A stretch of 64,000 nt of DNA from Chlamydiia bacterium (lineage in GTDB: Bacteria; Chlamydiota; Chlamydiia; Chlamydiales; JAAKFR01): positions 22,806 through 86,805 of the forward strand of contig CAWHBB010000007.1 in assembly GCA_963827485.1 (NCBI GenBank). Direction: 5' to 3'. Position 1 is the first letter of the stretch. Each line of letters begins with the position of its first letter. Positions 61,121 through 63,731 of the stretch are shown one piece after another. A model generated the notes under the pieces. It saw nothing but the letters and a program-made list of their open reading frames with translations, was not told the origin of the DNA and made no database searches. The translations under genes were made by a program, and so were the position numbers.

Positions 61121-61885
61121 ATGAAGAAGCTTATTTTTGGATGTGCGATAGCGGTAGGGGGCTTGGTCCTCCCACAAGCTTACGCAAACTTTTGCTACCC
61201 CGATCAGTGCGCACCTTGCTGCGATGTGAGGGGATTTGAGGGATTCTATGTGGGCGGTAATCTCGGTGTCGCGAGCAACACCTACCACAGAAACGACTTC
61301 GATGGGTTTTTCGGAAGCGCAACTCGTAGCTCTACTCCCACGAGTTATAGCGGCATCAGCACCAATGTCACAGCAGGGGTACTTGCAGGCTATGACTTGC
61401 AATGTTCCAATATGCTTTTGGGGGTAGTGGGCGACTGGAGCTGGACAAATCTGCGTAGAAATACGACAGAGCTTCCCGATGTGGCTGCTCCGAATTATCA
61501 AGATCGGAATAGAGTGCGATGGTTCTCGACCATTAGAGCCCGTGCAGGGGTGACGCTTTGCGACGCCCTTTTCTACATCACTGGGGGTGCTGCTGTAACC
61601 AAGATCAATAGACACCACGATGGAACCTTAGCAGCAGACAGCGCCTTCTTCCGAGAGTGCCGCACCCGTTGGGGTTGGACAGGTGGCGTTGGTTCAGAAT
61701 TCATGCTCGGCTGCAACTGGAGCGTGGGTGCTGAAGTGCTTTTCTGCCAATTCAGCGAGCAGAGAAGAACTTTCACCGATCCTTCGACGTCGGACCGCTA
61801 CTCATTTGGAGCGAGCGATTCGCTCTGGGTGGGCCGCGTGACGCTCAACTACCGATTCGGCGACCTCTGCAGCTGCTTCTTCTAG
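61121..61885 (+). CDS. Cys-rich OmpA/Opa-like outer-membrane beta-barrel protein, paralog 1 of 3
   Basis: The ORF track extends it to 61001. The start MKKLIFGCAIAVGGLVLPQAYA (signal peptide) is at 61121. It has a Cys-rich N-terminus (CYPDQCAPCCDVRGF) and a C-terminal ...LNYRFGDLCSCFF (terminal Phe). Confidence 0.65.
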   Translation: MKKLIFGCAIAVGGLVLPQAYANFCYPDQCAPCCDVRGFEGFYVGGNLGVASNTYHRNDFDGFFGSATRSSTPTSYSGISTNVTAGVLAGYDLQCSNMLLGVVGDWSWTNLRRNTTELPDVAAPNYQDRNRVRWFSTIRARAGVTLCDALFYITGGAAVTKINRHHDGTLAADSAFFRECRTRWGWTGGVGSEFMLGCNWSVGAEVLFCQFSEQRRTFTDPSTSDRYSFGASDSLWVGRVTLNYRFGDLCSCFF

Positions 61886-61913
61886 TCTAAGATTTAAGAG
61901 AACGCTTCATCTA

Positions 61914-61944
61914 CCAGAGGAGATCATCTCCTCTGGTTTTTTTT
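61914..61944 (+). terminator. rho-independent terminator
   Basis: CCAGAGGAGATCATCTCCTCTGG followed by T8. Confidence 0.7.
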
Positions 61945-62007
61945 GTTCTCAAAAAAAAGGGGGGCTGCTATCGATCTGATTTACACAACCATTTTAGGAG
62001 GTAGGTT

Positions 62008-62769
62008 ATGAAGAAGCTCATTTTTGGATGTGCGATAGCGGTAGGGGGCTTAGTTCTTCCACAAGCTTTTGCCGACTTTGGTTACTCTAACCAATGCGCA
62101 CCTTGCTGCGATGTGAGGGGATTTGATGGGTTCTATGTGGGCGGTAATCTGGGCGTCGCGAGCAACTTTTATGGAAGAAATGATCTCGACAACTTCTTCT
62201 CAAGCGGTATGGGCTTTTCCGCTAAAGGTGTTACCGATCGCGCAACCAACGTCACAGTTGGGGTGCTGGCCGGCTATGACTGGCAGTGCTCGAACTATCT
62301 GCTCGGCGTTGTCGGTGATTGGAACTGGACCAATATCAGAAGAACCTTGACCTTAGCTCCAAATGAACCGGCCGATGATTTCTTCTATAGAAATAGAAGC
62401 AAGTGGTTTTCAACGATTAGGGCGCGCGCTGGGGTTGTCTTTTGCGATGCCCTCATCTACCTCACGGGAGGAGGGGCCGTAATAAGGGCAGACAATACTT
62501 ACCACGCTTTCGATGCCACTGGGGGAGATGAATTCAGGAGCAACCACACCCGTTGGGGATGGGTAGGCGGAGTTGGAACGGAATTCATGCTCGGCTGCAA
62601 CTGGAGCATCGGGGCGGAGCTGCTTCTCTGTCAATTCGATGGCTACACTCGCACCTTCACAGATCCCACTGTGCCCGAGCGTTTCTCCTTCAACAATAAC
62701 GATTCGCTCGTTGTGGGCCGCATCACACTTAATTATCGCTTTGGCGACCTCTGCGGCTGCTTCTTCTAA
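62008..62769 (+). CDS. Cys-rich OmpA/Opa-like outer-membrane beta-barrel protein, paralog 2
   Basis: 253 aa with the same architecture: CAPCCDVRGFDGFYVGGNLGV...LNYRFGDLCGCFF. Confidence 0.65.
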   Translation: MKKLIFGCAIAVGGLVLPQAFADFGYSNQCAPCCDVRGFDGFYVGGNLGVASNFYGRNDLDNFFSSGMGFSAKGVTDRATNVTVGVLAGYDWQCSNYLLGVVGDWNWTNIRRTLTLAPNEPADDFFYRNRSKWFSTIRARAGVVFCDALIYLTGGGAVIRADNTYHAFDATGGDEFRSNHTRWGWVGGVGTEFMLGCNWSIGAELLLCQFDGYTRTFTDPTVPERFSFNNNDSLVVGRITLNYRFGDLCGCFF

Positions 62770-62787
62770 TCGGCAGATGACTCTCTA

Positions 62788-62851
62788 CCAGAGGAGATCT
62801 CTCCTCTGGAAGGTTCTCAGCAATAGCGCCTTGCAAAAGGCGCTATTTTTC
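62788..62851 (+). terminator. terminator region (two hairpins, the second followed by a T-run)
   Basis: CCAGAGGAGATCTCTCCTCTGG, then AGCGCCTTGCAAAAGGCGCT + ATTTTT. Confidence 0.6.
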
Positions 62852-62912
62852 ATTTAAAAAAAATTAAGATTTGCGCTACTGTTTCGCTGCTCTCTATTTC
62901 TGGAGATAGGTT

Positions 62913-63686
62913 ATGAAACAGTTTCTTTTTGGATGTGCGGTAGCGGTAGGGGGTTTGATCTTGCCACAGGCTAGCGCTCAAGATTTTGGCTACCCTGCAC
63001 AGTGCGCCCCTTGCTGCGACGTGAGGGGATTTGATGGATTTTATGTGGGCGGTAATGTGGGCGTCATCAGTAACACCTACCACAGAAACGACTTCGATGG
63101 GTTTTTTGGAGGAGCAGGTGAACATTCGGTCCCTACTAGTTTTAGTGGCATCAATACCAATGTCACAGCGGGAGTGCTTGCAGGCTATGACTGGCAATGC
63201 TCCAATACCCTGCTCGGTATTGTAGCTGACTGGAACTGGACCAATCTGAGAAGAACAACCACTCCACTTTCAAATGAGGCGCCAGCATATGCTTTCTCTC
63301 ACAAAGATAGGACAAGGTGGTTTACGACCATTAGAGCTCGGGCGGGAGTGACCCTTTGCGACGCACTCTTCTACATCACTGGAGGTGCTGCCGTAACAAA
63401 GATCAATAAAACTGACCAAGCGATAGAATCTGTAACAGTTTTTGGTTCATTCAGAGACAACCGTACTCGTTGGGGTTGGACAGCCGGCGTCGGTTCAGAA
63501 TTCCTGCTCGGTTGCAACTGGAGCGTAGGTGGTGAGGTTCTTTTCTGCCAATTTAGCGAGCATAAAAGAACATTTAGCTCCCCATTCTTCACTGCGCCTT
63601 TCAGATTTGGAGCGAGCGATTCGCTCTGGGTAGGCCGCATCACACTTAACTATCGATTCGGCGACCTCTGCGGTTGCTTCTTCTAG
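62913..63686 (+). CDS. Cys-rich OmpA/Opa-like outer-membrane beta-barrel protein, paralog 3
   Basis: 257 aa ending ...LNYRFGDLCGCFF. Confidence 0.65.
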   Translation: MKQFLFGCAVAVGGLILPQASAQDFGYPAQCAPCCDVRGFDGFYVGGNVGVISNTYHRNDFDGFFGGAGEHSVPTSFSGINTNVTAGVLAGYDWQCSNTLLGIVADWNWTNLRRTTTPLSNEAPAYAFSHKDRTRWFTTIRARAGVTLCDALFYITGGAAVTKINKTDQAIESVTVFGSFRDNRTRWGWTAGVGSEFLLGCNWSVGGEVLFCQFSEHKRTFSSPFFTAPFRFGASDSLWVGRITLNYRFGDLCGCFF

Positions 63687-63704
63687 TCCAATGAAGATCT
63701 TCTA

Positions 63705-63731
63705 CCAGAGGGGATGATCCCTCTGGTTTTT
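63705..63731 (+). terminator. rho-independent terminator
   Basis: CCAGAGGGGATGATCCCTCTGG followed by T5. Confidence 0.7.

Follow-up and report, generated by a model that had tools for sequence, protein, structure and literature searches.

A tandem array of three genes for cysteine-rich OMP_b-brl barrels in an uncultured environmental chlamydia

The three-gene array and its hairpins

The 64-kb window analysed here, a stretch of contig CAWHBB010000007.1 to which the genome reading in this work was confined, was found to carry a tandem array of three paralogous genes predicted to encode cysteine-rich outer-membrane β-barrel proteins. Copy 1 (61121–61885, + strand) encodes a precursor of 254 amino acids (aa), copy 2 (62008–62769, +) one of 253 aa and copy 3 (62913–63686, +) one of 257 aa, and the predicted mature proteins contain 11, 9 and 9 cysteines, respectively. 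These open reading frames (ORFs) lie where the original prediction had placed three tandem paralogs, and their products share 63–74% pairwise identity, copy 2 being the most divergent. The organism is, judging by its gene sequences, a chlamydia of an uncultured environmental lineage; GroEL encoded in the window (45219–46841, −) is 80–87% identical to proteins from metagenome-assembled genomes (MAGs) of uncultured Chlamydiales/Parachlamydiales. In the database, identical copies of the GroEL and barrel sequences belong to a single contig of 157,563 bp.

Each precursor begins with MKK, a hydrophobic core and A-x-A, which is typical of a Sec signal peptide and was recognised by inspection and not by a predictor, and residues 2–15 in this region are helical in the structural model of copy 3 described below. 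Cleavage is predicted between PQAYA and NF in copy 1, PQAFA and DF in copy 2, and PQASA and QD in copy 3, which would give mature N-termini NFCY, DFGY and QDFGY followed by clusters of cysteines. The motifs QCAPCCDVRGF(D/E)GFYVGGN and, at the C-terminus, LNYRFGDLC(S/G)CFF are common to all three translations, so that the signal peptide and the cysteine-rich CAPCCDVRGF motif previously described for each gene were both recovered. The start of copy 1 was taken to be the ATG behind a conserved GGAG (61110–61113) that aligns in all three copies. The database call for this protein (P0002) begins 11 codons upstream, and copy 2 matches database protein P0003 exactly.

Together with a downstream hairpin, each gene forms a repeat unit of ~884–917 bp, which starts ~17 nt before the ATG with conserved GGAG(A/G)TA(C/G)GTT-ATG. 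The pattern CCAGAGG-N(3-12)-CCTCTGG was found exactly three times in the 64 kb, once after each copy (none expected, 100 shuffles), at a distance from the stop codon of 28–29 nt for copy 1 and 18 nt for copies 2 and 3. The three shared hairpins fold at −17.8 to −18.5 kcal/mol. After copy 1, the hairpin CCAGAGGAGAT-CAT-CTCCTCTGG followed by T8 constitutes terminator 1 (61914–61944, +; −18.5 kcal/mol, z = −5.4), and after copy 3 the hairpin CCAGAGGGGAT-GA-TCCCTCTGG followed by TTTTTAT constitutes terminator 3 (63705–63732, +; −17.8 kcal/mol). The homologous hairpin after copy 2 (62788–62809, +) is followed by AAGGTTCTC and not by a T-run, and it was not called as a terminator by the scan. Terminator 2 (62822–62856, +), identified by the terminator scan and by folding, is an unrelated hairpin, AATAGCGCCTT-GCAA-AAGGCGCTATT (62822–62847), which lies 13 nt beyond the shared one and is followed by TTTCATTT; a T-run (TTTTCATTT) goes with this hairpin.

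After copies 1 and 3 the shared hairpin thus forms an intrinsic terminator, taken as a G+C-rich hairpin with an immediate T-run; after copy 2 only the second hairpin does. A near-identical terminator with a T-run had been assigned to every gene; the hairpin part of this assignment held for all three, but the T-run for copies 1 and 3 only. As each copy is followed by a terminator of its own, each gene looks monocistronic. The proposal that gene and terminator had been duplicated as a cassette agreed with the presence of the shared hairpin in each repeat unit, and sequence comparison supports duplication of the three genes as gene-plus-hairpin cassettes. Directly after terminator 3 there is an imperfect inverted repeat (63755–63857) with 48-nt arms that are 79% complementary and 7 nt apart.

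Alignment and an 88% identical direct repeat disclosed the motif CTGCTATCGAT..GATT upstream of copy 1 (61079–61095, +) and copy 2 (61965–61981), a candidate promoter element. A scan for consensus sigma-70 promoters gave no + strand promoter upstream of any copy. Runs of A located ~45–55 nt upstream of each start (A6 at 61064–61069, A8 then G6 at 61951–61964, and A8 at 62856–62863) could act as an UP-like promoter element, and the A8G6 tract before copy 2 has a length sufficient for slippage.

The array is downstream of accA, an ABC transporter and two tandem paralogs of unassigned function (58887–60044 and 60049–61044, +). The latter are 54% identical, start with MFPAP.EP, have no Pfam match and directly adjoin the barrel genes, so that this stretch has two successive tandem duplications. 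The composition of the array (GC 0.48–0.52, window mean 0.50) gives no support for recent horizontal transfer.

Family, fold and placement of the cysteines

All three proteins scored above the gathering threshold of Pfam family OMP_b-brl (PF13505), with 34.7–37.6 bits against a cut-off of 28.7 (copy 1, E = 3.4e-09 and 37.6 bits; copy 2, E = 1.9e-08). No other Pfam family was matched at E ≤ 1 by any copy, PF01308, PF01389, PF00691 and PF02462 included. The identities OmpA proper, Opa and major outer membrane protein (MOMP) were rejected on this basis, there being no match to PF01389, PF02462 and PF01308, respectively, and the name OmpA/Opa-like, under which the genes had first been described, gives way to PF13505. 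NCBIfam has no model for the family and returned only a sub-threshold match to PorG, and a profile search of PDB sequences found no significant relative.

An AlphaFold2 model of copy 3 (99 homologs) has a mean predicted local distance difference test (pLDDT) score of 87, a predicted template modelling (pTM) score of 0.80 and eight long strands. These strands, 18–25 residues in length, form in the model the antiparallel eight-stranded barrel characteristic of PF13505, in which short turns connect the strands at one end and longer loops at the other, and the prediction of a β-barrel is thereby borne out for this copy. The parts modelled with low confidence are the N-terminal extension and the C-terminal tail, which are probably flexible. 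The three mature proteins, each of ~25 kDa, are read as eight-stranded barrels, presumably residing in the outer membrane.

Strand 8 closes with an internal G-R-I-T-L-N-Y-R-F, the aromatic end of an alternating hydrophobic strand, which by inspection is a β-signal. The protein ends 8 residues after this strand, with no C-terminal OmpA-like domain, and it is this cysteine-bearing tail after NYRF that makes the β-signal internal. Among 88 relatives, the tail after NYRF varies from 0 to 13 residues (median 7), and the last residue is aromatic in only 46. The outer-membrane targeting signature proposed earlier for the C-terminus was therefore retained as the NYRF motif within strand 8, and not as the terminal Phe.

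In the mature proteins 3.8–4.7% of the residues are cysteine; the figure for 27 other ORFs from the window is 1.0%. In copy 3, cysteines 31, 34 and 35 are between the cleavage site and strand 1, C96 is at the end of strand 2 and turn 1, C149 is in turn 2, C201 in turn 3 and C212 in strand 7, and C253 and C255 belong to the tail. In outer-membrane barrels the termini and the short turns lie in the periplasm, and by this rule eight of the nine mature cysteines of copy 3 would face the periplasm. The same positions recur in 88 cysteine-rich homologs, in which the columns corresponding to C34, C35, C96, C149 and C201 are occupied by cysteine in 83–93% of sequences and the C-terminal tail carries cysteine in 67, vs only the pre-strand-1 and turn-1 columns in 11 cysteine-poor relatives. 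The N-terminal cysteines are spaced very differently from one homolog to the next.

As the mature proteins have odd numbers of cysteines (11, 9 and 9), at least one cysteine in each cannot pair within the monomer, and the placement of the set suggests disulfide tethering on the periplasmic side of the membrane. The cysteine richness had been likened to that of the disulfide-linked chlamydial outer-membrane complex. Given the chlamydial origin of the genes the comparison is apt, and the cysteine content agrees with it; presence of the three proteins in such a complex is a prediction.

Divergence of the copies, relatives in other genomes and other genes of the window

In windows of 15 codons, nucleotide identity between the copies lies anywhere between 30% and 96%. 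Synonymous sites are close to saturated, with a proportion of synonymous differences (pS) of 0.53–0.67 and a synonymous rate (dS) of ~0.9–1.7, and the ratio of non-synonymous (dN) to synonymous rates is 0.15–0.20 overall. The copies are old duplicates under purifying selection. The barrel was split on the basis of the model into a periplasm-proximal half (11 residues per strand plus the turns) and an extracellular half. Residues invariant among the three copies make up 76% of the former and 33% of the latter (Fisher p = 7e-10), with dN of 0.08–0.12 and 0.31–0.55, respectively. All three turns are fully invariant, and each of the four hairpin tips retains 0–4 invariant residues. The concentration of divergence in predicted loops, noticed at the outset, was thus confirmed, in contrast to the antigenic variation that had been read into it. 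Where dS is unsaturated, omega (dN/dS) is 0.06–0.20; two of the three comparisons of the extracellular half are saturated, so that positive selection in the loops is not assessable from three paralogs. No simple-sequence or tandem repeats were found in the coding sequences of the three genes, and phase variation via such repeats was rejected. With old copies under purifying selection, nothing shows active antigenic variation.

The first 47 codons (61121–61261, 62008–62148 and 62913–63053) have a pS of 0.34–0.36 in the comparisons with copy 1, vs 0.58–0.76 over codons 48–239; the gap is smaller between copies 2 and 3 (0.53 vs 0.68). This low 5' divergence hints at old gene conversion or a constraint at the nucleotide level.

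A protein search gave 528 matches, and ~90 of the best 120 are proteins of 230–270 aa with the same architecture, namely a cysteine-rich N-terminus such as CCPPQCDPCC and ...LNYRFGDLCxCF/W at the end. The few cysteine-rich relatives that are named among these 120 come from Chlamydiota or Chlamydiales MAGs, apart from one pair labelled Gammaproteobacteria, and none of the 120 carries a UniRef source tag. The pair in question consists of typical cysteine-rich members in tandem (GCA_022601445.1, L007, 8001–9621), and either its bin has been given a wrong label or the family is not confined to Chlamydiota. Distant matches, at 36–39% identity, are cysteine-poor, are annotated by JGI as 'outer membrane immunogenic protein' and include a Bradyrhizobium locus; when genome contigs were searched with one of the proteins, a Bradyrhizobium locus was the sole match. 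A family profile retrieved 1,334 cluster representatives at E ≤ 1e-30 and ~18,000 at E ≤ 1e-10, numbers against which the cysteine-rich proteins form a small branch; the family as a whole is very large and already known. A literature search found no paper describing a cysteine-rich PF13505/Omp25-like branch in chlamydiae.

In related chlamydial contigs, two or three such genes stand in tandem, each followed by an AGAGGA...TCCTCT hairpin and a T-run of its own. In three of these contigs the array is located between dus/acylphosphatase and genes for a Trp/Tyr permease, a tRNA synthetase and uvrB (uvrB in two), a neighbourhood that differs from that in the window. Identity is 65–84% within arrays vs 45–63% between genomes, which points to recurrent, lineage-specific duplication or homogenisation. 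Of the best 150 representatives matched by the profile, 97 are polypeptides of 400–1500 aa with 2–5 tandem eight-stranded barrel domains (P0363, P0364, P0366, P0370, P0390 etc., all from outside the window). They have short linkers and no internal signal peptides, are all cysteine-poor and resemble proteobacterial proteins, and in one of them the barrels are preceded by a TonB-receptor-like N-terminal part. Such fusions suggest that barrels of this family work side by side, and may bear on the recurrence of tandem genes.

Two further members of the family had been suggested in the window. The gene at 34036–34781 (−) does belong to PF13505 (E = 5.4e-10) but lies outside the array and is a degraded, cysteine-poor representative of a different subfamily, and resembles copy 3 only locally (87 aa at 36% identity). 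A frameshift separates its signal peptide and first strand from the remaining 207 codons, and compared with an intact homolog of 258 aa (P0244, 88% identical) it lacks 11 residues, GDFDGAGINGY, in strand 3; either the gene has become a pseudogene or the sequence contains an error. The relatives that carry names are from Bradyrhizobium, Afipia and a Legionella MAG. Another relative of this subfamily, P0245 (51% identical, outside the window), has a cysteine-rich N-terminus, ECAPECNPCPCPCPCW, and extra internal cysteines, which suggests that OMP_b-brl barrels have become enriched in cysteine on more than one occasion. The second suggestion, 13246–13749 (−), was not sustained. The product of this gene carries a signal peptide and matches the PagL barrels, which are lipid A 3-O-deacylases (PF09411, 38 bits, cut-off 23), and the gene has no similarity to the three of the array; its sequence implies that this chlamydia would have a capacity for lipid A remodelling.

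The 3' half of a tRNA gene (44402–44473, −) recurs at 34880–34923 as an exact direct repeat of 44 nt. The ~9.5 kb between them contain an integrase-like gene (43068–44126, −; judged from sequence), a zinc-finger/primase-like gene (38316–39323, −) and a small gene pair (35149–35944). This tRNA-flanked interval looks like an integrated mobile element, with the degraded OMP_b-brl gene just outside it.

Elsewhere in the window, several ORFs start with MAAAAAA(A), namely 4891–5724 (−) and 6937–7326, 8336–9730 and 9762–11123 (+), the last three with a CCRAW motif near the N-terminus. These may represent an F-box-like, eukaryote-type family of the sort typical for amoeba symbionts. The gene at 2626–2979 (−) encodes a small protein, apparently secreted and with 5.9% cysteine, that has at its end WRCQACGYINYFYNSTCQNPAC, reminiscent of a RanBP2-type zinc finger; its sole Pfam match is a weak one to a zinc-binding transposase domain.

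Proposed role and comparison with known barrels

The infectious stage of chlamydiae owes its stiffness to a shell of disulfide-cross-linked proteins, the barrels of which differ strikingly by lineage: MOMP in pathogens, MOMP-like proteins in Waddlia and Simkania, and PomS/T in Protochlamydia. With moderate confidence, we favour a structural role for the three proteins, as barrels locked by disulfides to each other, to cysteine-rich envelope proteins of the periplasm, or to both. The precursors would be exported by means of their Sec signal peptides, and the β-barrel assembly machinery would insert them into the outer membrane by way of GRITLNYRF in strand 8. Disulfides would then form from the ring of cysteines on the periplasmic side and from both flexible cysteine-rich ends (QCAPCC and DLCxCFF), and may join cysteines within one chain, adjacent barrels, or barrels and cysteine-rich proteins of the periplasm. 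The outcome would be an outer membrane fixed into a cross-linked shell, to which the diverged extracellular hairpins may add specificity of host contact. Beyond an eight-stranded barrel with periplasm-side cysteines, we infer every step, including the disulfide cross-links, their partners and any adhesive role, and the outer-membrane location and the periplasmic orientation of the turns are themselves predictions.

Several points speak against such a role. The cysteine-bearing turns would face the periplasm by virtue of a general topology rule. The turn cysteines could pair with the terminal cysteines of the same molecule, which would stabilise or plug the monomer and create no network. Environmental chlamydiae retain peptidoglycan, and for them a disulfide shell may therefore be less essential. 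The family is not chlamydia-specific if the Gammaproteobacteria label of the tandem pair is right.

It is also conceivable, but rather unlikely, that the proteins are primarily surface adhesins or invasins, or a repertoire of variable antigens, similar to Opa, Ail, OmpX and the Waddlia OmpA-family adhesins; cysteines would then only stabilise the fold, and the copies would present alternative host-binding hairpins. Strands of 18–25 residues must indeed project far beyond the membrane, as in OmpX, NspA and OpcA, and the preferential divergence of the extracellular half and the recurrence of multi-copy arrays in related genomes point the same way. However, there is no sign of diversifying selection or switching, given omega ≤ 0.2 where estimable and saturated dS, nor were coding repeats or silent cassettes seen, and the conserved cysteines on the periplasmic side are left unexplained. 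Adhesion is compatible with the structural role, not exclusive of it. A function as channels for small solutes or hydrophobic compounds, as for OmpW and AlkL, or as hemin binders like Bartonella Hbp of the Omp25/31 group, with each paralog tuned to a ligand, appears distinctly improbable, since eight-stranded barrels have no general-diffusion pore, the similarity to OmpW is at the level of the fold only, no ligand-binding motif was identified in the proteins and the cysteine pattern would again be unaccounted for.

Clustered cysteine motifs in flexible termini would also suit the binding of a metal or other redox cofactor in the periplasm by CxxCC and CxC, in place of structural disulfides. 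We regard this as very improbable, as no metal-binding family was matched in Pfam or NCBIfam, the spacing of the N-terminal cysteines is variable among homologs, unlike that of a metal site, and the periplasm is oxidising. That the array is an artefact, produced by assembly duplication or consisting of decaying pseudogene copies, is scarcely credible, even though the contig is metagenome-assembled and another OMP_b-brl gene in the window is degraded. The copies are not identical but differ at 26–37% of residues; the windowed identity of 30–96% and the near-saturated synonymous divergence exclude an assembly duplication, and intact frames, omega well below 1 and the ribosome-binding site and terminator kept by each copy are at odds with decay. 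Identity, dS and omega data together refute both forms of this explanation.

Returning to the structural role, a more specific and more tentative idea, which we consider possible but would not expect to hold in full, is that the cysteine-rich Omp25/31-like branch provides a so far overlooked barrel to an envelope cross-linked by disulfides in one clade of uncultured environmental chlamydiae. The branch would play there the part of MOMP in Chlamydiaceae and of the MOMP-like OmpA family in Waddlia, and would have arisen from a peptidoglycan-tethered barrel of proteobacterial type in which the tether was replaced by periplasmic cysteine clusters. The fused relatives with 2–5 barrels hint that the three tandem products may assemble side by side as a hetero-oligomer.

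What the array encodes is a cysteine-rich variant, so far uncharacterised, of a barrel family that is itself known; the fold, the family and the general idea of cysteine-rich chlamydial outer-membrane proteins had been established before. If the structural role is correct, a third, unrelated barrel family has independently become cysteine-rich, a further case of convergent envelope engineering, and the relevance of the finding lies mainly in the construction of chlamydial envelopes. Confinement of the cysteines to the periplasmic face offers a simple, testable picture of a small barrel acting as a rivet.

Among solved eight-stranded barrels, those comparable with the model are the Legionella OMP_b-brl 'porin III' associated with the Dot/Icm machine (9nh2_A), OmpW, NspA, the transmembrane domain of OmpA, the N-domain of OprF and Thermus TtoA. 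Sequence identity to them is only 11–18% and none has the periplasmic set of cysteines; OmpA and OprF differ further by their C-terminal peptidoglycan-binding domain, missing in the three copies. Neisserial Opa proteins are likewise multi-copy eight-stranded barrels with extracellular loops that vary between copies. However, the three proteins have no match to PF02462 and their genes no pentamer-repeat phase-variation tract or other coding repeat, and opa genes are dispersed and recombining, whereas the copies described here are tandem and old.

Closer in setting are the barrels of other chlamydiae. The PomS/PomT porins of Protochlamydia and Parachlamydia are also an abundant barrel family of MOMP-less environmental chlamydiae, but they are set apart by size and description, PomS–V being of 34–39 kDa and PomS having only two cysteines (PMC3561449). 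MOMP/PorB and the MOMP-like OmpA family of Waddlia and Estrella resemble the array products as cysteine-rich chlamydial outer-membrane barrels that are multi-copy and partly clustered, and were proposed or shown to be part of a disulfide-cross-linked, sarkosyl-insoluble envelope (PMC2878342, PMC4184618, PMC6490308). Waddlia chondrophila has 11 cysteine-rich OmpA-family outer-membrane proteins, abundant in the sarkosyl-insoluble fraction, with 13–19 cysteines each (PMC2878342, PMC4184618), vs 9–11 here in a predicted eight-stranded barrel, the Waddlia proteins being compared by description only. They set a precedent for cysteine-rich barrels that form a family within a cross-linked envelope. 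No sequence relationship to MOMP/PorB was detected, with no PF01308 match at E ≤ 1, and MOMP is a pore-forming porin stabilised as a disulfide-linked trimer.

The nearest named relatives by sequence are cysteine-poor proteobacterial proteins annotated as 'outer membrane immunogenic protein', and the closest known system would be the Omp25/Omp31 type of Alphaproteobacteria, as in Brucella, with homologs in Bradyrhizobium and Afipia. The group shares Pfam family PF13505, to which we take Brucella Omp25 and Omp31 to be assigned. Many homologs are named by JGI after this group (KEGG K16079, 'outer membrane immunogenic protein'), and the proteins compared, which were of the Bradyrhizobium type and not from Brucella, are 36–39% identical over nearly the full length and have in common the motifs GFYxGGNxG, WFTTxRxRxG, YxTGG, RWGW and LNYRF. 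These cysteine-poor relatives share two cysteines, just before strand 1 and in turn 1, with the chlamydial proteins; compared with their ~2 cysteines, the chlamydial proteins have 9–11, the additional ones being in the N-terminal extension, turns 2 and 3 and the C-terminal tail. Brucella Omp25 and Coxiella BpbA/B are small barrels linked to peptidoglycan via their periplasmic N-terminus (PMC12729407), and set a precedent for tethering of the outer membrane by proteins of this size. The chlamydial mature N-terminus, (Q)D/N followed by cysteine clusters, is without the Ala-Asp end (Asp-Ala/Ala-Asp) that is linked to peptidoglycan in the Omp25 group (motif according to PMC12729407). A disulfide would take the place of the L,D-transpeptidase link of that group, and such a tether would mirror in its chemistry the covalent peptidoglycan tethering of Omp25 and BpbA/B; if so anchored, the chlamydial proteins would run parallel to those barrels.

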